A DNA stretch of 48,252 nucleotides, the filler included, from Stramenopiles sp. TOSAG23-2 (lineage: Eukaryota): assembly GCA_900128395.1 (NCBI GenBank). It is 2 parts of 2 records of this genome, joined end to end, with 100 filler letters (N's around TTAATTAATTAA, not from the genome) between each part and the next. Parts side by side here need not be neighbours in the genome. Positions count along the whole stretch, not along the records: positions 24,203 to 48,252 come from LT649471.1; 1 more part is not named here. The stretch is one strand, 5' to 3'. The position numbers and the translations under genes were made by a program. The notes beneath the pieces were generated by a model. The model ran no database searches. It worked only from the letters and a program-made list of their open reading frames with translations, and was not told the origin of the DNA. Every line of letters begins with the position of its first letter. Position 1 is the first letter of the stretch. Shown in pieces: positions 4,200-48,252 of this stretch.

Positions 4200-4874
4200 C
4201 TAATTATTATTATAGACACAGCACTAATTCAAAAAAACTTCATAGGGACCATTTTCACGACAATATCAATTAACAAAAAATCTCCATACTTAAGTTTTAA
4301 GTACTCTAACAAAAATATGTAAATTAGACTACGAAATTTATACTACATTTCTATAACACCTCAAACACAAATATTTTTGCCAATTTTATTTTCATTTTTA
4401 AAAGTTCCGCCAAATAGGGTACAAAAATTGAGAAATTTAATGAGATATATAAAATTTGCATTATGTCTTCAAACATCATTTTCAACATTTTGAAGTCATA
4501 TAAACTACCACATCCATTCTTTATATATATAACTTATATCTCTAAACTCCAACCAAAATAAATATTACATTTACATGAAACGCTAGACCCAAAGTGAATT
4601 TTCACTAAAAAATGTACATTTTTGGACACTTTTATTAAGGTTTTACAGGCCTATTCTATAGTAAGGGTACTTTGACATGCAATTGAAACGTCGTTAGTAA
4701 AGTATGTTCCTGACACTCAGTTGTCATCAACTTACTCTTAGGTTTGGCTCGATACATGTATAAATGAGAATCGAACCTACTTTTGTAATAATATTTTGAT
4801 TGATGTGAGATATATTGTATCAACTATACCCCATTTTGCAATGTATTTGAACATGCTTGAAAAAGGCCTAGAAT
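4200..4874. repeat. Dispersed repeat family, copy 1 (inverted, diverged homologue of 24203-24870)
   Basis: The reverse complement of ...CATGCTTGAAAAAGGCCTAGAAT (4852-4874) matches ATTCTAGGCCTTTTTCAAGCATG at 24203. Collinear similarity continues back to ATAGACACAGCACTA near 4212. Confidence 0.9.
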
Positions 4875-24102: not shown

Positions 24103-24202
24103 NNNNNNNNNNNNNNNNNNNNNNNNNNNNNNNNNNNNNNNNNNNNTTAATTAATTAANNNNNNNNNNNNNNNNNNNNNNNNNNNNNNNNNNNNNNNNNN
24201 NN
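24103..24202. other. Artificial contig/scaffold linker
   Basis: 44 N + TTAATTAATTAA (stop codons in all six frames) + 44 N. Confidence 0.97.
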
Positions 24203-24870
24203 ATTCTAGGCCTTTTTCAAGCATGTTCTAATGCATTGCAAAATGGGGTATAATTGATACAATATATCTCAAGTCAGTCAAAATATTAGTACAAAAGTAG
24301 GCTCAATTCTCATTTGCAGATGTATAGTGCCAAACCTAAGAGTAAGTTGATGACAACTGAGTGTCAGGAAGATACTTTACTAACGACGTTTCAATTGCAT
24401 GTTTAAGTACCCTTACTATGGAATAGGCTTGTAAAACCTTAATAAAAGTGTCAAAAAATATGCAATTTTTAATGAAATTTCACTTTGGCGTTTCATGTAA
24501 ATGTAATATTTATTTTGGTTGGAGTTTAGAGATACAAGTTATATATATAAAGTAAGGATTTGAAAGTTTATATCACCTCAAAATGTTGAGAATGATGTTG
24601 TGAGACATAATGCAAATTTTATATATCTGATGAAATTTCTCAATTTTCGTACCCATTTTGGCGGAACTTTTAAAAATGAAAATAAAATTGGCAAAAATAT
24701 TCGTGTTTGAGGTTTTATAGAATTGTAGTATAAATTTTGTAGTCTAAGAGGTATTTTTTTGATAATTCACTTAAAACTTAATTAGAGGGATTTTTTATCA
24801 ATTGAACTAGAATTGATACACTTTCTGTTTTAGGAATTTGTACTAGTGCTGTGTCTATGGTAAATTAGTA
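24203..24870. repeat. Dispersed repeat family, copy 2 (truncated by contig start)
   Basis: Inverted, diverged homologue of 4200-4874. Confidence 0.9.
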
Positions 24871-27828: not shown

Positions 27829-27852
27829 GATTGCACAATGAGATAATCTTGG

Positions 27853-27883
<31 letters not shown>

Positions 27884-28327
27884 TACTCGCTAGTATATTT
27901 TCTTCCATCTTTCATCTCGTCTGCTACTAATAAATTATTTATTTGTTGTATATAAAGCTTTTATGATCATTTTATGTGGTGAGATGTATGTGCATCAAAT
28001 GATAGAAGAATTCGCAAAAAGTTACAAACGCCGTGGAAGGCGAGGACCCCTGCCCCAAGAAGAAAGGGGTTTGTAGCAGTGTTGGGATTGGATGAAAATT
28101 TAAGGGTGGAAATGTCGTTAAAGTGGTATGGGAAAATAGTGGATTGGTGAATTATATTAGTATGTATATAGCATTTGTGTTCGACCTTAATTAGAAGAAG
28201 AGGATTGAGAGTGAGTAATGAAAAATTATTTTAAAATAAAAGTAATACTGGTTTCATTTATAGTGGAGTAATAAAAAATAATTTAAAAAAACGAAATGGT
28301 TTATTTAATAATAAAAGGTATCCTGTT

Positions 28328-29656
28328 TTATTTATATATATCCATCCCTTTCACTTGTTGATACCCGTTTGATCCAGATCTTTTGTATTGTTGTATAGCA
28401 TTTAATTGTGATTTCATATTATCACTTAGTTGATTATTACGTATAGTCAATGATCTTAAAGTATTGTTCGTTTTTAATCCATCAATAATATTTTGTATTC
28501 CACCATCATCAGTAATATTATTATTACTTAGGTTCAATAGTCTTAATGTATTGTTTGTTTTTAATATTTCACCAATACTTTGTACGTCAGTAATATTATT
28601 TTTAGATAGGCCCAATGTCGTTAATGCTTTGTTTGTTTTTAATGCTTCACCAATACTTTGTACATCAGTAATATTATTGTTATGTAGGTTTAATGTCGTT
28701 AATGTTTTGTTTGTTTTTAATCCTTCACCAATACTTTGTACATCAGTAATATTATTGTTATGTAGTTCCAATGTCGTGAGTGTATTGTTTGTTTTTAATC
28801 CTTCGCCAATACTTTGTATATGAGTTATATTATTATTATATAGGATCAATGACGTTAATGTATTGTTTGTTTTTAACGTGAGTGTATTGTTTGTTTTTAA
28901 TCCTTCGCCAATACTTTGTATATGAGTTATATTATTATTATATAGGATCAATGACGTTAATGTATTGTTTGTTTTTAATCCTTCGCCAATACTTCGTACA
29001 TCAGTAATATTATTATTTTCAAGGGACAAGTACGTTAACGTGTTGTTTGTTTTTAATCCTTCAGCAATACGTTGTACGTCAGTAATATTATTATTAGATA
29101 GGCCCAATGTCGTTAATGTTTTGTTTGTTTTTAATGCTTCACCAATACTTTGTACATCAGTAATATTATTGTTATGTAGTCCCAATGTTGTTAATGTATT
29201 GTTTGTTTTTAATGCTTCACCAATACGTTGTACATCAGTAATATTATTACTATGTAGGGACAAGTACGTTAATGTATTATTTGTTTTTAACAATTCACCA
29301 ATATGTTGTACGTCAGTAATATTATTATTGTATAGGTCCAAGGATGTTAATGTATTGGTAGCTTTCAATGCTTCGCCTATATTTTGTAAATCTTCGTCAC
29401 GGATGTTCTTCTCAGGTAAATCTACGCCACGTGCATCAAAGTTTGTGTCATATTTTCTTTGTAATACAACTTTAAAATAATACCAACGCAAGGGATGGTA
29501 TTCAAGAAATTTTTTACATGTTTTCGCAAACATATTTATCATTGCAAGTGTATCATCGTTGAAATATGCAATGAGACCTGGTTTTGTAGAAGTACCAATA
29601 CATATTTGTAATATACCAGGTAAGTCTTCAAAATGTCGAGTAAGTAACGATGACAT
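28328..29656 (-). CDS. F-box-like domain + RI-like leucine-rich repeat protein (about 12 x 26-aa repeats)
   Basis: Repeat LKTNxTLxxLxLxxNNITDVQxIGEx. N-terminal FEDLPGILQIC...IAYFNDD...INMFAKTCKKFL. Confidence 0.9.
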   Translation of the reverse strand: MSSLLTRHFEDLPGILQICIGTSTKPGLIAYFNDDTLAMINMFAKTCKKFLEYHPLRWYYFKVVLQRKYDTNFDARGVDLPEKNIRDEDLQNIGEALKATNTLTSLDLYNNNITDVQHIGELLKTNNTLTYLSLHSNNITDVQRIGEALKTNNTLTTLGLHNNNITDVQSIGEALKTNKTLTTLGLSNNNITDVQRIAEGLKTNNTLTYLSLENNNITDVRSIGEGLKTNNTLTSLILYNNNITHIQSIGEGLKTNNTLTLKTNNTLTSLILYNNNITHIQSIGEGLKTNNTLTTLELHNNNITDVQSIGEGLKTNKTLTTLNLHNNNITDVQSIGEALKTNKALTTLGLSKNNITDVQSIGEILKTNNTLRLLNLSNNNITDDGGIQNIIDGLKTNNTLRSLTIRNNQLSDNMKSQLNAIQQYKRSGSNGYQQVKGMDIYK

Positions 29657-30130
29657 TGTATATTAATATATGTATATGTATATATATATATATCGATATA
29701 TATGATTATCTCTTTTCTCTTAGCTTTTCGGTTGTTTTATTTAATTTCTTCCGTTGTTTTGCAGTATCATGGTGGTGTTGTTATATGTATCCTATGTATA
29801 GGTTTGTTATGGCCCAATGGAAATTTAAGGCCGGAAATGTTGTTTTTAGATTATTGGGGAAATAGTCGATATAAATAAGGAAGTGTAAAAGTGAGAATTG
29901 GTGAAGGCGTTGGAGCGCATTTGTGATTATTCTAGATAGTAGAAAGGGATGGAGGGTGAAAGTAAATTTTCCTTAATTGGATGGAAGAGGTTAAAATAAG
30001 GTCAAAGTTGCCGTTTGGGGGTGGTATTTTGTTAAAATAGGTTGCAGGTCAGTATATATAAAGTAAAAAATAAGATAAAAAATAAGATATAAAAACAGAG
30101 AGAATGTTTTTAAAAGTATAGTTAATTTTT

Positions 30131-30391
30131 TTAGTGATACACACGCTCCCAAGAATCCGCCCATTGAACCATTTCATCCAACGACCACCATTGAATGTCA
30201 TCGTCGTATACCACGTCCCGGGAGAAACCGGTCCCCATCGGATATCTCGGGATCAGCGGACACAGCAAGAACTTCGTGACGTAATTTGTTCGACTAATTC
30301 TATCGATTGCATAGATGTCAACATTTGTACCATTTCTGGCCAAGATCACGTTGTTTATTTTTAAGTTAGATAATAAAGTTTTTGTATCCAT
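30131..30391 (-). CDS. Small orphan protein (~86 aa)
   Basis: ATG at 30391 (MDTKTLL). GC-richer than its flanks, globular-looking composition, preceded by an AT-rich leader like neighbouring genes. Confidence 0.5.
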   Translation of the reverse strand: MDTKTLLSNLKINNVILARNGTNVDIYAIDRISRTNYVTKFLLCPLIPRYPMGTGFSRDVVYDDDIQWWSLDEMVQWADSWERVYH

Positions 30392-30850
30392 TTTTGGAGT
30401 CACGTATATGTATGTGTATTGATGTAGATGTATATTTATTTATATATATTTTTCGTTGTAATATATTTATATATATTTTATTATTTGGATACTTTTATTC
30501 TGTATAATACTTTGTTCTATACTTTTGTTGTATCTATTTTGTTTTGAAAGGCTGGGTATTTTTTGCAGTATATATCACTATAGTTTTTTAATATAGTTTG
30601 TTTTGAAAAAAAGGCTGTAGTCTGTATTATACTGGTGGTGGTCCAGGCGGTGCCGTTTAGTCGCACTTGAAGGAGGAACGACTAAACTGCTAAATGGACT
30701 GCGTGGTATAGCATGTAGGTAGGGATTTAGTAGTGTAGGGAGTGGTTAATATGGCTAGTATATTGGTGTATTATCTATTATCTAAATGGCTGCATTGAAA
30801 TCAAGAAGTATGCGATTACAGCAAGTGAGGTAAGATTAAACGAATCTGTT

Positions 30851-32437
30851 TTGAATTGTTATAATTATGAAGAATTCAACAACAACGTATTGGTACCGAT
30901 GACGCAGGATGAGTACGGGCAGTTGAGTCGGATGTTTGGGGCACCGTTTCGGTCCGTAGATGCCAGTGTAAGTGGTTACATGGTGAATATGCACATGGAG
31001 CAAGCCAGGCTTGTGCATAATGTAGCAGAATCGTCGTTTGAGTGGAACTTTTTTTATGCGATGGTTCATCATTGGTTTGGGTTAAGTCATCCTGTGGGAA
31101 AAGAGCGGTATACGTATGGATTCATGCGTCTAGTGCATCGAGGCGTGAAAAATTTTGTTACCCGTGAGTATAAGAGAGGATACGATTGCGGTTTTCATGG
31201 AAGAGGTTGTGCGATTAAAGGTGTGGGGACAGTAGGATTTGACGTCGATGAAGGGAACTGGTGTAATTGGTTCTGTTGCAAGGCGTTAAAATTTCTGGCC
31301 CGGAAAGATGGTCAAACGTTGTTTCAAAAGTTTGGTCGATTCATAGAAGGTAAGCAGCTGACCCGGAAGGACGCTTATTTGCAGATATTACCAAAATACG
31401 AAGGCGGCCAAGTAGTGGCGGGGCCTTGGTTAACAGGAAAAGAAAGCGGGTCTGGATTTGATGAAAATGTGGATAAATTGCGAGTAATGTTCGCCGAACA
31501 TCCGCGGTTCCCGAAGGTATGGAATGCAAGGCAAAATGTGTTGTTTGAAAGGATGAAGAGGGATTTGACGTCGGTCGGCGTATACCTTGTTGTTGCGACG
31601 GACATGAAGGTGGAAGTATGGTCATGGCCAGTGTATTGGAATGCGGAGAAAAAAAGTGGCGAACCACAGGCGAAAAAACAGAAATCAGAATCAGGAACGA
31701 TTGGAACGATTGAAGTGAGGAAATGCATGTGTTACTCGTTCAATTCATGGGTAGATTTGTGGGCGGAGGTGAAAGAAGGCTTGTGCCTTAACATCCGGAA
31801 GAAACATTTCTTACGTGGAAACAACGTAGAGGTGGTGCAATTAACAACGAATAATGTGGGCAATGTGGTTGCTATGAGTGAAACCGTTGTAGGTCATGAG
31901 ACACGGGGACATAGTTATGTGTTGCAAATCGTCAATCGGGATTTGGACAATGCTATGGAAAGGAAAGTGGAGGGATATATTGACGCTGAAACCATGGCGA
32001 ATTTGTATGGGGGCGAAGCATGCGAATGTGAACAGGCTGTGGAGCGATGTGCCTGTGTCTTGAAATGGGAGGCTAAGCGAGAAAAGTTACTCGCACCGGC
32101 GCGCCGGCGATCGCAGTTGAGAAGAGAGGAGAACAAAAAGAAGAAAAAGGCGGGTAAAAAGACGGAGAACACCAGCAACGTTCCCGGTGATAGAAATGCC
32201 GAAGGTGCAAAGTTCAATGCAGGAGAGGGTGAAACATCGGGTGATATAAATGCCGACAGTGCGGATGAAAAGTCCAATGCAGTAGAGGGTAAAACATCGC
32301 TTGTTACGTCTGATCGTGAATATGCATCCAGTGAGTCTGGTAATTTCGATTTCATGCTTGCGAATGATGAAGCAGTGTTGGGATCGGATGACAATGAAAC
32401 GCTGGAAATGTCGCTAAAAGGGAGTGACAGTGAGTAA
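30851..32437 (+). CDS. Orphan protein (~510-528 aa) with Cys/His clusters, basic NLS-like tract and acidic tail
   Basis: Long ORF with visibly higher GC and different codon use (GCG, CGG, ACG). The start is uncertain: TTG at 30851, first ATG at 30899, or a possible short upstream exon from 30786. Confidence 0.8.
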   Translation: MNCYNYEEFNNNVLVPMTQDEYGQLSRMFGAPFRSVDASVSGYMVNMHMEQARLVHNVAESSFEWNFFYAMVHHWFGLSHPVGKERYTYGFMRLVHRGVKNFVTREYKRGYDCGFHGRGCAIKGVGTVGFDVDEGNWCNWFCCKALKFLARKDGQTLFQKFGRFIEGKQLTRKDAYLQILPKYEGGQVVAGPWLTGKESGSGFDENVDKLRVMFAEHPRFPKVWNARQNVLFERMKRDLTSVGVYLVVATDMKVEVWSWPVYWNAEKKSGEPQAKKQKSESGTIGTIEVRKCMCYSFNSWVDLWAEVKEGLCLNIRKKHFLRGNNVEVVQLTTNNVGNVVAMSETVVGHETRGHSYVLQIVNRDLDNAMERKVEGYIDAETMANLYGGEACECEQAVERCACVLKWEAKREKLLAPARRRSQLRREENKKKKKAGKKTENTSNVPGDRNAEGAKFNAGEGETSGDINADSADEKSNAVEGKTSLVTSDREYASSESGNFDFMLANDEAVLGSDDNETLEMSLKGSDSE

Positions 32438-32693
32438 AATATACGTAATATACAGATAGAGAATTCAAATATTAATATAAAACCATAAGACTTTCAGGAG
32501 AAGCTTCTCGTGCATCATATCTTAAAACGTGCAACAAATAATGTTGTCATAGGATTTGCAGTTATAGTATCCATATTTTTAACATTTAATTTCATTTGTT
32601 GTTCTTTTTTCCTCAGTTTCATTTGTTAATTGTTTATCGTGCTCTGCTATTTTTTCATATATTTCATATACGTACGCTTTACTTTACGTGCGC

Positions 32694-33926
32694 CTATCCC
32701 CTTGTCCCTCCAGCCTTTTTTATTGTTTTAAAAAGTATTTGCTGGATCGGGCTAGTGTTATAATATGCCAAGTCCAGGGGTGTGCGGCCCCACTTGTCTT
32801 TCTTATTAATGCTATCCACAGACATATGAGCTAATAACAACTCAATCAACTCAGTAGTCGTTTTTTTATTTTGTGCAGCTATATGCAAAGGGGTGAATCC
32901 AGCAACACCGGTTGTATTAGGATCAGCTTCACATTGTTCAATCAAATATTGAAGTATAGGAAAATGTTGTTTCAGTGCAGCTGCCATTAAAGGCGTACAT
33001 TCGTATTTACCACAGACAGATGTACCTAGTTGACTTTCGTATTGTGTTATATTTGCATCTGCAATCAATAATTTTACATCGTCCAAACGGCCAAGTTGAC
33101 ATGCACATACTAATGGCGTACCACGTGGACATTCTGCATAATATTTCTTTTCTAAGGTAGATGCATCCGGATACATGATTTCGACTATGTATTTTGCTAA
33201 GTTGAAATGTTTATTCTTTACAGCTATTTGCAAAGGTTTTCCTATTTTACCAAAACTATCGTAACCGGATCGACTGACAGTGGTCTTTGCACCATTGTAG
33301 TTTGCAACCAATAGTTTCACATCCTCAAGACGTCCGTATTCACATGCACATACTATTGGCGTACCCAGTGGAAATTCCTTTTTGTAATTTCGCACTAACT
33401 CTGTTTCATCAGCATATGCAATATCTACCAAATAGTGAAGTATCTGTTGATGTTTGCTCTCTGCAGCCGCCATTAAAATCCCACCAGGTCGATTTACGTA
33501 TTCTTTCAATGTCATCCCATCCCCAAGCCATGTAGTGGCTGGGCGTTGCCTAACGGGAGGTAGAGGACCGGCGGAATTTGTTGAAAGTTTTGATAAACTG
33601 CGAGTAATGTTCGATAAAACAATGCAATAATATGATTTATATATTGTTGCTGTGGTAAGAAATCGTTTAGTGGTGCAGGCAAACATATTCACTAACGAAC
33701 GAACATCATTACGAAGATATGGTATGATTGTTTTGACGCAGATATCATCAATACCAGGCAAGGTTGAAAAATCATAAGTGGATTGTGGGTGTCCAGTATG
33801 TAATTTCGTTATCTCAAATTTTGCCATGGCGGCCAGGCGTTGCAATGCATTGCGCTTGGACTCCTTATCTTTACCAGCAGTAGATAAAACGTCATTCATT
33901 CTTTCCATAAATTCAGTATTATTCAT
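32694..33926 (-). CDS. F-box-like domain + ankyrin-repeat protein
   Basis: Ankyrin motifs GTPIVCACEYGRLEDVKLLV, GTPLVCACQLGRLDDVKLLI, TPLMAAA, GFTPLHIAA, GRTPLDLA. N-terminal FSTLPGIDDIC...IPYLRND...VNMFACTTKRFL. Confidence 0.9.
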   Translation of the reverse strand: MNNTEFMERMNDVLSTAGKDKESKRNALQRLAAMAKFEITKLHTGHPQSTYDFSTLPGIDDICVKTIIPYLRNDVRSLVNMFACTTKRFLTTATIYKSYYCIVLSNITRSLSKLSTNSAGPLPPVRQRPATTWLGDGMTLKEYVNRPGGILMAAAESKHQQILHYLVDIAYADETELVRNYKKEFPLGTPIVCACEYGRLEDVKLLVANYNGAKTTVSRSGYDSFGKIGKPLQIAVKNKHFNLAKYIVEIMYPDASTLEKKYYAECPRGTPLVCACQLGRLDDVKLLIADANITQYESQLGTSVCGKYECTPLMAAALKQHFPILQYLIEQCEADPNTTGVAGFTPLHIAAQNKKTTTELIELLLAHMSVDSINKKDKWGRTPLDLAYYNTSPIQQILFKTIKKAGGTRG

Positions 33927-33985
33927 TTTTATTATTAATTATATATGTTATACATTAATTTTTTTGCCTTTTTAATATTTTGATT

Positions 33986-34200
33986 GTATATATACGACGC
34001 ACGTATGTATGTTCTATTTGATATATCTAAAATGATAATACTAATTGTGTGATATGATGTAACACGTATTTTTGAATATATCTAGTAGTAAGCGTTCTGG
34101 CTTGTTACTATTTTGATCGTATATATACGACGCATGTATCTATGTTTTATTTGGTATATGTGAAATGATAATAATAATATTGTATAATATGATTCAATAT
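33986..34200. repeat. Diverged ~80-bp direct repeat upstream of the ankyrin gene
   Basis: GTATATATACGACGCA.GTAT.TATGTT.TATTTG.TATAT.T.AAATGATAATA at about 33986 and 34119. Confidence 0.8.
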
Positions 34201-36200
34201 GTTACGTATAATAACAAAAACAATATATAACTTGATATCGTGGTTTTGTTATATTATATGTAGCCGGTGGTGTTGGTGGTAAAGTTTGTGATTGTCGCAT
34301 TGTACTATAATACATATGTGTAATATATTGTAGTATTATTTATTATATTATTATTTTTTATTTATTATATTTATTTATTATTATTGCTATTATTATAGGT
34401 CTAATAGTACCAGCCAGGCCAGAGGTATTGTTGTTACTAGTATTGAAATTAGTATTATTTGTTTTTTTGTTTGTTGGCTATTATTAGTGAAATTAGTATG
34501 CCTGGTATGCTGGTATGAGACGAGGACTTTGCTCTAGAAGGAGTCGTCTGGAAATCGGACGCATCGATTAAAGTAGCTACAATACTGTATGTTGTACCTA
34601 GGTCAATAGGCAGGAGGTGTCTACCTTTTTTTTTTAAGTGACTTATTTTGAGTGGTAACAGAATTATGGGTTGTTTTCCTACTTGAATACAACGGAATAC
34701 AAAATATATAGGGAAGAAATTGGAAATTGTACAATCTGTAATATAACAGGCATCAAAAAGAAATTATTTTATGCATATGGACCAAAAACATAACCATTAT
34801 AAATGTTGCCTTAAGTGCGGGAACAGAGTTTATAAAATCATAAAATATATTTAACCTTAATTACGGGACGATCCACCATCCACAATCTAAATCTAAATTT
34901 AAATCTAAATCCATGGATATTTTAAGAAGTCAGGTGCATATAGGTAAAATGGCAACATTTGGAGTACGCCGTATATTATACTAACGTGATGTGTATCGGA
35001 TTTCGTACAAAACCTCTCTGTTAGCCATGTAATGTCATAAGTATGACAAATTGGAGGCTGTATACTTGTTTTTAGGTGGTGTTTTGATTGTACATGTATG
35101 TGTGTATGCACGATAGTAAGGTATGGGACTGGCAGGTAATGTAAGTGGAACAGGAGTATATAAGTTGTACGTTATTTAATATATTCATAATTATTACGTC
35201 TTCTGACAAAGGTTCAATGTGCATTGTATCGAACGATTGTTTGGCAGGTTTCTATACTTCTTACAATACCGTCACTGTCCAATGTACATGGTATAAAACT
35301 CCTCTTTGCAGTTTTGTTGCAAATCCAATTGTGACGACTAAACTTGTCTTTCATAATTCACGAAACGGCCTACGATGCTATGTATATGGTACAACAGTCG
35401 GCTTTTTATTTTAGTCCCAATACCAATTTTGCAACTAAAATTGCCGATAAGAAAATTACGCCACCTTTTTGCAAAAAAAAATGGCCACCTTTTTGATAAA
35501 AAAAAGGGACAATCGTTTACGCCTACACAGGTACTCAGTGAGGCAAAACCCTACTTAACAACATTTTGATAGGAAAAAAGACTAGTAAGTAAAGTTCATT
35601 AATCTTTACCTACCCTTTGATGTGTACACAGTTCCCCTTATAATAAAATAGACAATTATACGATAAAACAGTATACAATTTTCGTATTCTTATGACATAA
35701 TTCGTTTTTTATCCCAATACCTTATTTTAACATATATTTTTTTATTTCCTTTACTAACTTCTTTTATTAAAACCCCTACACATCAGGGCAGGGAATTATT
35801 ATATATATTATAACAGGTGCACAGCAGGCGGCCCAAAACCAACAGGAAGAGATTTTAATTGCATTTTTTACATTTTCTTCGATGAGCCTTTTTTTTGCGA
35901 ATAACATTTTAATTTGTTTCTAATGATATTCCCATATTAAATATGTAGAAATCTGCCTCAGCAAATCTAAATCAATTTCCACCACGTAAAATTGTGTGTG
36001 CGAATATATATATTGCACTATTGGATACATCGAATAAAAATAGAAAGTATAATAGAGGACGATGAATCATTGTATGAAAGGAACAATTTCATATTCCGCT
36101 TTATATAATCTATCTGATTTATTTAAATACCACTTCGACCCCCCGCGCATTCAACATATTATTTGTATACAAATTAAAATAACAACAAATAAGAATAAAG

Positions 36201-39685: not shown

Positions 39686-41896
39686 TTACAACTCTCTGGA
39701 ATTTTTAAAAATATCCACTCTTTGAACAGTATCACCCCATAAATCTTCTATTAATTCAGCGATATCCTCCTCATATATCGATTCATTGTTTATGAAATTA
39801 CAATTTAAAACTAATGTAAGCATGCCATATCCAATAGGACAAATACGATAATCTTCATTCCAAGACACGATTTTACTATCAATATCAGACGATGATCGTA
39901 TATTCAACGCAAGCTTCGCTAATGCATCTACATGTAATGGTTCATATGGTTTAATTTCAAATAATACATTATGGTTTTCTTTTGATGCATTAACAATATC
40001 AATATCGTAATTATCATCGTTCATAGTATTATCTTCATGATCCACATCAGGAGCAGCATTCTCTGTTTGTTTGATTTCTTTTTCTGTATCTTCCGTAAGA
40101 ATAATCCTATTTATTTTTTCATTAATTTCATTTACAAGTAAAGATTCTTCACCACAACAAACAATGTATTGCATGCGTGCTTTTTCAAACATTTCCTTTG
40201 CTTTCCGTAATTTATCCTCGTCACTTAAATGTTTAACTTCTTCTTGGTAAATGTTATTACTACCTTCATTATCATTGTCATTCGTTATGTCACGTAATGA
40301 TAATAAAAGCGCATCACCATATTTTTCAAATGTTCCCCCTTTTTGCAAATTATATTTTGGAAATATAATAGAACTTAATTCACTCCAACGATACGGATTA
40401 TCACAAGTTTTCCATTCATTGATAGCATCTAACCTACTTTCTTCTGTTTCAGATTTACAACGATTACATTGACATGTGAAAAATTTAAATTTTCTCAATG
40501 ATTCCGTACGAATTTTTGTAGGTTGATCCAGCAAATTACTGTAAGAGAAACAACATTCTGTCCCAGGTTTTATCGTATCAAGTGCACGGAATACCATAAC
40601 ATGTTTTCTACTATTATTCCTAGTATTATCTTGTTCAAAATTGTGAGCAATATTTTCATTACATGAATGATTAAACATTGATGCTAAACCAGGAAACAGT
40701 CCACAGCCATATTTTCCCAATGCAAACCCATTAATATTTATAGCGAAAAACATGTTTCGTAAAAATATTGGATCAATCATATTCTGGCTATTGGTACTAT
40801 TACTAGTATCAATGATATCGCTATTACCCAAAACTAGATTGTATATCCAATCCCCCATTTCCGTAGATGCTTTGTAATATTCTGGTTGTTCCTTTTGATG
40901 GTCATTAATATGAAATTCTAATTCCTTTAGTTTTTTTAATTCCTCTTTCTTCGTCTCATCCATGCTTAGAAGTGCCACGCGTAAAACAATTAATGCTTTA
41001 AAAGGATCAATTTTATTTTCATAATCCTTTAAACATTTTTCATATAATGGTTTTATATATTGACATTCTTGATTGTGTTTTCTTGTATTTTGTTTTTTAC
41101 ACTCGGCAGAACAATATTTAATATTACATGTAACACATTGTAAATACAAATTTTGTATTTGATTGCTTTGTTTGATAATTTCTTTTCCACAATGAAAACA
41201 TGCTTTTGTACCTGCAAAATCATATGTTGCAATAACGCATGGTTCTACTTCTAAAAGAATATCCCCAGGTTCTAAATTTTCTTGTCCATTCCAAGTGACA
41301 TATCTACCACCACCATTAACAGTAGTATTACTATTAATTAAAATATCTTCACGTTTTGCATGGTTCTTTCTCTTATTATTACGATTGTCATTATCATCAT
41401 TTTTCTTTAAATCTGTTTGAAAATTTTGATTTATAGCATCTTGACTTTTTTTAAGACCATATAAACCATCTGACCAACGCAATGCTTCAATTAACATCCA
41501 TTTATCACGTGGAACAATACATAAATTAGTTTGATCTTGTAGTGGTTTTGTAATATCTCGACGTAATAATGTCATAATCTTTGTAGTATCTTTTGTAACC
41601 ATTCTTTTTAAAAATGGTTGCCAACCTCGTACATTTTCCAAGACTTCGAATGGGTTAGATTGGAAGTTTGATAAATTGATACTGTTTAATAAAGGATGTT
41701 GTTTAAACTTTTCATGTATAACTTTAAAATTTGACGATGTTGAAAATTGTGTTGGGAAAATATCAGTATCATTCATAACATTATATTGAAAGTTATTATC
41801 ATCATTTTTGCATGTAAAACTTTCATATATTTTACGATGATACATATGATAAAACATATGAGCATCTGCGGCCCAATCTGAATGTGTTGATTCCAT
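39686..41896 (-). CDS. SET-MYND (SMYD-like) lysine methyltransferase with C-terminal EF1B GEF-like domain
   Basis: GGRYV...PGDILLEVEP, MYND CFHC...CVTC...YCSAEC...H..EC, MFNHSC, GTECCFSY and post-SET FTCQCNRC. C-terminal VLFEIKPYE...W...PIGYGM..L...VQRVDI. Confidence 0.88.
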   Translation of the reverse strand: MESTHSDWAADAHMFYHMYHRKIYESFTCKNDDNNFQYNVMNDTDIFPTQFSTSSNFKVIHEKFKQHPLLNSINLSNFQSNPFEVLENVRGWQPFLKRMVTKDTTKIMTLLRRDITKPLQDQTNLCIVPRDKWMLIEALRWSDGLYGLKKSQDAINQNFQTDLKKNDDNDNRNNKRKNHAKREDILINSNTTVNGGGRYVTWNGQENLEPGDILLEVEPCVIATYDFAGTKACFHCGKEIIKQSNQIQNLYLQCVTCNIKYCSAECKKQNTRKHNQECQYIKPLYEKCLKDYENKIDPFKALIVLRVALLSMDETKKEELKKLKELEFHINDHQKEQPEYYKASTEMGDWIYNLVLGNSDIIDTSNSTNSQNMIDPIFLRNMFFAININGFALGKYGCGLFPGLASMFNHSCNENIAHNFEQDNTRNNSRKHVMVFRALDTIKPGTECCFSYSNLLDQPTKIRTESLRKFKFFTCQCNRCKSETEESRLDAINEWKTCDNPYRWSELSSIIFPKYNLQKGGTFEKYGDALLLSLRDITNDNDNEGSNNIYQEEVKHLSDEDKLRKAKEMFEKARMQYIVCCGEESLLVNEINEKINRIILTEDTEKEIKQTENAAPDVDHEDNTMNDDNYDIDIVNASKENHNVLFEIKPYEPLHVDALAKLALNIRSSSDIDSKIVSWNEDYRICPIGYGMLTLVLNCNFINNESIYEEDIAELIEDLWGDTVQRVDIFKNSREL

Positions 41897-42191: not shown

Positions 42192-43002
42192 TATAGCTCA
42201 CCTTGGAAATGAAGCTATGCGTTTTATAGCTATCCTCAACTTATTTGGTTGTTGATATATTATTAATCGTTATATATGTGTATGTAATGTATGTCTACAT
42301 ATCTACATGCATATACGCCATATATGTCATTCATGTGTTATTAGTTATTTTATTAATACGTCATACATTCTCCTGTATTATTAGTTTTATTATTTAAACA
42401 CGATGGATGTATAGGCGTGGAATAGCACTGCTTTTGGTACTATTTATGTTTTTAATTATTTGAATTTCTTGATTTTTTAATGTGGTTTTTGGCGCTAAGG
42501 CTATATTGATTTTGTTCTTATTTTTATTTTGTTTGTGCGGCGTTCTGTGAATTTATTATTGGTATTAATATTTATATTCCCTTTAGTATTGGGTGGGAGG
42601 AAAGATAAAAGGTATATTGAATCTATAGCTCACCTTGGAAATGAAGCTATGCGTTTTATAGCTATCCTCAACTTATTTGGTTGTTGATATATTATTAATC
42701 GTTATATATGTGTATGTAATGTATGTCTACATATCTACATGCATATACGCCATATATGTCATTCATGTGTTATTAGTTATTTTATTAATACGTCATACAT
42801 TCTCCTGTATTATTAGTTTTATTATTTAAACACGATGGATGTATAGGCGTGGAATAGCACTGCTTTTGGTACTATTTATGTTTTTAATTATTTGAATTTC
42901 TTGATTTTTTAATGTGGTTTTTGGCGCTAAGGCTATATTGATTTTGTTCTTATTTTTATTTTGTTTGTGCGGCGTTCTGTGAATTTATTATTGGTATTAA
43001 TA
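42192..43002. repeat. Two apparently identical 379-bp direct repeats separated by 53 bp
   Basis: TATAGCTCACCTTGG...TTGGTATTAATA at 42192-42570 and 42624-43002. Confidence 0.92.
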
Positions 43003-48197: not shown

Positions 48198-48252
48198 TGG
48201 AGTGAATTAAGTTCTATTATATTTCCAAAATATAATTTGCAAAAAGGGGGAA

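Follow-up and report, generated by a model that had tools for sequence, protein, structure and literature searches.

The window, by which we mean the whole stretch of 48,252 nucleotides from Stramenopiles sp. TOSAG23-2 that was analysed, is a gene-dense piece of nuclear eukaryotic DNA with a GC content of 32%. Its genes are mostly unbroken open reading frames, whose products include CobW, calpain, GH99, anoctamin-like, PPR and Mtr4 proteins, along with others of housekeeping type. Public sequencing runs that contain the region come from seawater and marine metagenomes, and a further small run is tagged as a possible source. The features considered here are the following.

28072..28122, plus strand: second short copy of orphan-gene sequence, 51 nt, in the LRR-PPR intergenic spacer
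28328..29656, minus strand: LRR gene, with the same N-terminal module as the ankyrin gene; outgroup for the end of the module
30734..32437, plus strand: open frame of the orphan gene, first ATG at 30899
31407..31494, plus strand: segment of the orphan gene homologous to the linker (putative donor side), read in sense, in a region conserved across the orphan family
31487..31501, no strand: palindrome of 15 nt (7-nt arms, 1-nt centre), the centre being the end of the homology in the putative donor
32368..32418, plus strand: final codons of the orphan gene, the stretch that the 51-nt copy matches
32694..33926, minus strand: ankyrin-repeat gene, 410 aa, an ORF without interruption
32694..33526, minus strand: ankyrin-repeat part, residues 134-410 of the ankyrin protein
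33527..33614, minus strand: putative inserted patch, the 29-aa linker, residues 105-133 of the ankyrin protein
33615..33926, minus strand: N-terminal module, residues 1-104 of the ankyrin protein

The product of the ankyrin gene (32694-33926) exceeds the Pfam thresholds for membership of the ankyrin repeats: Ank_2 scores 109.3 bits (cut-off 27.3), and four further Ank models also pass theirs. The module in front of these repeats is common to the LRR gene of the window and all of the ankyrin relatives found. A resemblance of the module to the F-box is plausible as a weak lead, given that F-box proteins were its top named clusters in the ESM Atlas (0.88, 0.83 and 0.82, with a lead threshold of 0.9). 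Pfam F-box families matched none of 21 family members at E <= 5, and a profile of nine N-terminal modules found no PDB chain at E <= 10. One protein record, P0022, joins a bacterial-type pyridine-nucleotide oxidoreductase to 26% of the N-terminal module of the ankyrin family, a fusion that is probably a chimeric contig in its source assembly.

Between the module and the repeats lies a linker that is homologous to part of the orphan gene. Positions 33527-33613 align without gaps with 31407-31493, both on the plus strand, at 64 of 87 nucleotides, which reproduces exactly the count of an earlier note on this DNA, and the three peptides quoted there are also correct. The length of 528 aa given for the orphan was not recovered; the protein has 512 aa from the first ATG, 567 aa from stop to stop and 564 aa in a related contig. 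Identity drops to 16/80 in the left flank and 22/80 in the right flank of the match, so that the ends of the homology are sharp. Base 33614 is A in the window and C in its relatives (the related contig and two metagenomes), which lengthens the homology to 88 nt. A gapped blastn of the window against itself gave 67/88 identities, 58.1 bits and E = 1.4e-8. When the 87-mer was shuffled with its dinucleotides preserved and compared with the window, its own region being masked, none of 1000 shuffles reached 58.1 bits (mean 22.9, SD 1.9, maximum 31.9). The significance against composition-matched shuffles on which the homology had been staked thus holds, and the linker is genuinely homologous to a part of the orphan gene, is read on the opposite strand and fills precisely the space from the N-terminal module to the ankyrin part.

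The two copies are 74-76% identical, differing at 24-26% of positions, and barely match over the middle 17 nt. They are separated by 2,120 nt (about 2.1 kb) and have the same DNA orientation. Since the orphan and ankyrin genes are on opposite strands, the linker is read antisense relative to the orphan segment. Chance similarity, a chimera of assembly or amplification and transfer in the reverse direction, from ankyrin to orphan, are all three refuted: the first by the shuffles, the second and third by the contigs and the family comparisons described below.

The case for a chimera has one point in its favour, in that the last 55 nt of the window (48198-48252) are an exact inverted copy of 40333-40387, 7.8 kb upstream, and have the appearance of a chimeric contig end; some chimeric joins may accordingly be present in the source assembly. 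However, a chimeric linker would be near 100% identical to its source and not 74%, and the linker is present in independent contigs of two other studies as well as in contig L002. The X2 and X3 runs belong to two studies, neither of them that of the possible source run. A DNA contig of X3 (record 30) covers 33393-33730 with five differing letters and spans both linker junctions, and two DNA contigs of X2 (records 22 and 23) each bridge one of them. Contig L002, which came out of a scan of metagenome contigs with a degenerate pattern, matches 30783-34743 at 97.5% identity and has both copies 2.1 kb apart, its two 87-mers being those of the window letter for letter. The view that the arrangement is no assembly artefact is therefore upheld, since both junctions are bridged by independent DNA contigs (X3, X2) and by L002.

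Confirmation by RNA, which had been proposed for both junctions, was obtained for one. RNA-library contigs are colinear over the 33527 junction in X15 (record 7, 33458-33586) and X16 (record 14, 33369-33565), and the other junction falls outside the RNA cover of these two runs, whose contigs leave out 33587-33654 and hence say nothing about it either way. The orphan gene has almost no RNA cover in the same two runs, which proves nothing. Among the 10 contig joints listed, none skips the linker. The joints near 32998-33496, with short sides of 20-27 letters and 85% likeness, are read as paralogues with a different number of repeats, and none of them joins across the linker.

Two larger differences between the window and L002 lie outside the linker. 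The window is without 466 nt of L002 (586-1051 of that contig; 30783-30784 in the window) that hold the first 22 codons of the orphan and its upstream region, and the two sides of the junction overlap by 2 nt (TA). In the window the orphan may be 5'-truncated, or the join at 30783-30784 may be an assembly fault. Conversely, 2 kb of the window (28650-30655) are missing from L002, at about its position 460, where the two sides overlap by 1 nt; the missing piece holds an 86-aa ORF and the greater part of the LRR gene. Either the strains differ here, or the LRR repeats were collapsed when L002 was assembled.

The orphan gene belongs to a very small family. A word-based search returned two proteins, and a profile search gave 21 matches among 1.84 billion representatives, mostly fragments; several diverged members occur in metagenomes. 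A word-based search with orphan residues 135-235 against shorter proteins gave no homologue. As for function, the orphan matches no Pfam family, its best hit among the PHROGs has E = 0.22, and the ESM Atlas gave no usable match. In viral contigs of IMG/VR, 137 pattern matches to orphan relatives were obtained and none was confirmed. The AF2 model of the protein, with a mean pLDDT of 39.3, is too poor for a fold search. In the acidic tail of the orphan, a 60-nt in-frame stretch (32231-32292) bounded by imperfect 15-nt direct repeats is absent from P0023 and from one X3 contig.

In composition the orphan gene is foreign to the window. Its GC content (30899-32437) is 46.3%, and 47.6% at third codon positions (GC3), compared with 29-39% in 17 other genes measured. 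The linker likewise has 50.6% GC, the ankyrin gene outside it 38.2%. In orphan relatives at 93%, 40% and 28% identity, and also in P0038, a fragment of 64 aa, the homology of the family runs through the segment that matches the linker and on beyond both of its ends. This family-wide continuity, the GC content and the occurrence of the linker in a single derived clade of ankyrin genes together indicate that the segment is native to the orphan family and that transfer ran from orphan to ankyrin. Transfer in the reverse direction would not account for a segment embedded in orphan-family homology and yet confined to one derived ankyrin clade.

A search for ankyrin relatives with residues 1-150 found 22 proteins. 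The linker is carried by P0001, P0002 and P0003 (97%, 88% and 88% identity to the window protein, respectively), and also by P0047 and P0049, cluster members whose sequences were read. In P0004, the relative that comes next, residues 1-104 match residues 1-104 of the window protein at 79/104 positions, and residues 207-280 match its residues 134-207 at 56/74. The two proteins were aligned segment by segment; whole-protein BLASTP picked a shifted repeat register. The 29-aa linker thus stands opposite 102 ankyrin-like residues of P0004 (105-206), and the longer stretch of P0004 is common to P0005-P0008. In the LRR paralogue the N-terminal module continues for a few residues beyond the breakpoint of the ankyrin gene.

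A maximum-likelihood tree restricted to shared columns puts the five rows with the linker into one clade of 100/100 support, nested in another 100/100 clade together with the five long-form rows. P0004 is sister to the linker clade at 81/70 only, the root being placed at the midpoint. The linker state appears from these comparisons to be derived in the ankyrin family. A survey of related ankyrin genes for presence or absence of the linker, which the earlier note had suggested, therefore finds it in one derived clade alone.

The limits of the nucleotide homology with the orphan fall within one or two bases of the breaks in protein homology with P0004. This coincidence gives strong, independent support to one event, in which about 306 nt were replaced in frame by 88 nt. 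Comparison with present-day relatives suggests that target sequence was lost at the insertion site, and because the 102 codons are kept by the closest relatives, the event takes the form of a deletion with filler. The proposal that the gene is a three-part chimera is consequently right as to the linker between module and ankyrins. It needs amending in that the parts were not merely joined: 102 ankyrin-like codons were replaced by 29.

The linker differs little among the four protein variants seen, despite a divergence of 24-26% between the two copies, so that the event predates the split of those lineages. In the P0047 variant, eight linker residues are absent. When the window is compared with L002, non-synonymous and synonymous differences number 11 and 2 in the ankyrin gene, and 34 and 8 in the orphan gene; on this short scale neither gene has any sign of purifying selection. 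Both long frames nevertheless remain open in an AT-rich genome. AF2 gives a pLDDT of 27-36 over residues 111-140, and since all of 44-173 is below 50, the values for the linker are weak evidence of disorder. The linker is most likely a weakly constrained, tolerant and flexible spacer that separates the N-terminal module from the repeats that are left.

The degree of divergence suggests either that the event is old or that the donor was another member of the orphan family. The plus-strand translation of the linker matches P0038 at 17/27 residues (E 1.8e-5) and P0023, a close relative of the orphan, at 16/28 (E 0.003). Over the 27-28 shared residues, linker, neighbouring orphan and P0038 are about equidistant, with 16/28 between linker and neighbour, 17/27 between linker and P0038, and 16/28 between neighbour and P0038 by hand count. 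At several positions the linker agrees with P0038 and not with the neighbouring orphan, and it therefore looks like an old snapshot of the family and not like a recent copy of today's neighbour.

These data bear on the possibility that the patch came from a different orphan-family paralogue, perhaps a tandem copy since lost from the locus. The divergence of 24-26%, the residues shared with P0038 and not with the neighbour, and the existence of several diverged family members in metagenomes are all in line with such a donor. So is a second orphan-derived piece of 51 nt that lies 4.3 kb upstream and could be a remnant of that copy: 28072-28122 matches 32368-32418 at 43/51 nucleotides in the same orientation, with sharp ends (E 1.4e-8 in the self-search of the window), and is either another patch or what remains of a lost tandem orphan copy. 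On the other hand, with 21 matches among 1.84 billion representatives the family is tiny, which makes it an unlikely coincidence that recipient and family member should lie 2,120 nt apart in the same orientation, and the pattern scan of metagenomes turned up no closer donor. We regard a donor other than the neighbour or its ancestor as unlikely.

The homology, its direction from orphan to ankyrin, the replacement of a longer stretch and its presence in several independent sequences having been demonstrated, we propose that an old in-frame deletion was patched with orphan-family DNA, the neighbour 2.1 kb away being the likeliest donor and the patch being either filler at a break or the product of a template switch. 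We give this reading a probability of about 0.7. An ancestral ankyrin gene would have lost some 102 codons just behind the N-terminal module, namely the tail of the module and ankyrin-like repeats. The gap would then have been closed by a patch of 88 nt. Its template, with the same orientation on the DNA, would have been a gene of the orphan family, most likely the neighbour or the neighbour's ancestor. The pathway may have been repair of a double-strand break with filler DNA, templated or captured, or else a template switch mediated by microhomology while the DNA was replicating. The antisense frame of the patch would by chance have been open, yielding a new 29-aa linker; with an open frame and a patch length that is a multiple of three, the gene could survive.

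Two routes had been put forward earlier for the origin of the linker, template switching and capture of a Helitron or Pack type. The most economical account is templated repair or a template switch; the second route is not supported. Helitron and Pack-MULE elements do shuffle gene fragments, and such elements are marked at their ends by terminal inverted repeats with a target duplication, or by Helitron termini. Repeats are indeed present elsewhere in the window (for example 4266-4874 against 24805-24203). However, the insert is bracketed by neither inverted nor direct repeats, and the homology stops sharply inside a coding frame. A Pfam scan of 20 ORF products found no transposase, Rep-helicase or reverse transcriptase among them. 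The pattern scan of metagenome contigs for the segment's conserved end gave the same two sites in L002 and one further match, with no dispersed copies in the contigs scanned. The further match, L001, was rejected as chance, since it has no frame like that of the orphan and blastn finds in it no similarity to the window. Capture by a transposon is accordingly extremely improbable.

A variant of the proposed event would keep the same deletion and patch, with RNA as the source of the patch: a transcript of the orphan would have been captured at the break, either directly or after reverse transcription. In its favour, the putative donor codes for protein, a patch from RNA could lie in either orientation, and RNA-derived patches are described in human break repair and polymorphisms (PMC5110952; PMC12065846). 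Nevertheless, the segment has no intron junction, poly(A) or other mark of RNA, and no target duplication or poly(A) was found at the flanks of the insert. No reverse transcriptase is encoded among the 20 ORF products scanned. Moreover, with a donor 2.1 kb away in the same DNA orientation, a DNA template in cis is simpler. We therefore consider an RNA intermediate quite improbable.

One end of the homology falls at the exact centre of the palindrome 31487-31501 in the putative donor. This is the only perfect palindrome with arms of at least 7 nt in the 3,193 nt spanning the orphan and ankyrin genes, and one of nine in the whole window with at least two G or C per arm. A stable hairpin at this site is not supported by the folding energy, which is weak (-4.9 kcal/mol, z = -0.81, with 42 of 200 shuffles folding as well), and the positional coincidence alone stands. 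The position of the palindrome is an unexplained coincidence that may mark the end point of copying or the site at which a folded intermediate was opened. A bolder idea is that the compositionally foreign orphan gene seeds fragments repeatedly (88 nt in the ankyrin gene and 51 nt next to the LRR gene) through patching limited by hairpins, a self-primed single strand being opened at the loop and the palindrome fixing one fragment end; this we hold to be very improbable. If true, it would be a source of new coding linkers for a fast-evolving family of F-box-like repeat proteins in a protist.

The deletion patched with orphan-family DNA, which we prefer, resembles several known processes. Deletions joined by templated insertions are described as a footprint of repair, also in natural isolates, in the available part of PMC4032859, and templated or filler insertion in alternative end joining is described there and in the accessible text of PMC2943611. 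With the filler DNA of polymerase-theta-mediated end joining, or synthesis-dependent MMEJ, the present case shares a deletion at the target, a nearby template on the same chromosome, and the lack of target-site duplication and transposon ends. It differs in scale: the inserts described in the part of PMC4032859 at hand are short copies of the flanks with deletions of 50-200 bp, whereas here an insert of 88 nt comes from a template 2.1 kb away and about 306 nt are lost. That the patch is longer and its template more distant than in those flank-derived inserts (PMC4032859) counts against the reading we favour.

Replication-based template switching, the alternative form of the same event, is known as FoSTeS/MMBIR and entails loss at the site of the switch. 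Our case has in common with it a short cis copy from a nearby template and loss at the switch site, and a kilobase distance is plausible for this pathway. It differs in having one switch out and one back, with no larger duplication or triplication.

Patches of DNA at break sites, taken from distant regions of the genome and probably made through RNA, are described in the available portion of PMC5110952. The class 2 templated sequence insertion polymorphisms of that report are likewise patches at a break with no target duplication or poly(A) (PMC5110952). As far as that portion goes, their sources are distant and they are probably RNA-made, in contrast to a patch that matches an adjacent gene and is ancient, fixed and coding. 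In antibody genes, genomic inserts become segments of expressed proteins, as reported in PMC9457163. The likeness is that of a templated genomic insert in an expressed protein. The antibody inserts are somatic and read in sense, whereas the linker is germline-like and evolutionary, is read antisense and replaces repeats in a multigene family.

Taken together, the event at this locus is a single historical event of a known kind, and involves no new system or element. What is unusual is that a patch read on the opposite strand replaced folded repeats and stayed as conserved coding sequence. It offers a clean natural case in which filler from repair or copying, taken from a neighbouring gene, became coding and was kept across several strains or species. 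Such events represent a concrete route to new protein segments and domain spacings in the rapidly evolving repeat proteins of uncultured marine protists. In addition, the linker preserves an old snapshot of an otherwise orphan gene.

Repeats of other kinds occur along the window. The inverted repeat pair mentioned above has a length of 609 nt and an identity of 88.7% (4266-4874 and 24203-24805) and may be a dispersed repeat; its second copy adjoins the N runs 24103-24146 and 24159-24202. The part of the window from 3.4 to 7.4 kb is dense in tandem and palindromic repeats. The PPR and LRR genes both have a long (TA)n tract immediately upstream of the start codon (27837-27885 and 29664-29715), and each tract is preceded by a shared short motif. 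Finally, a tandem duplication of 379 nt with 100% identity is present at 42192-42570 and 42624-43002.
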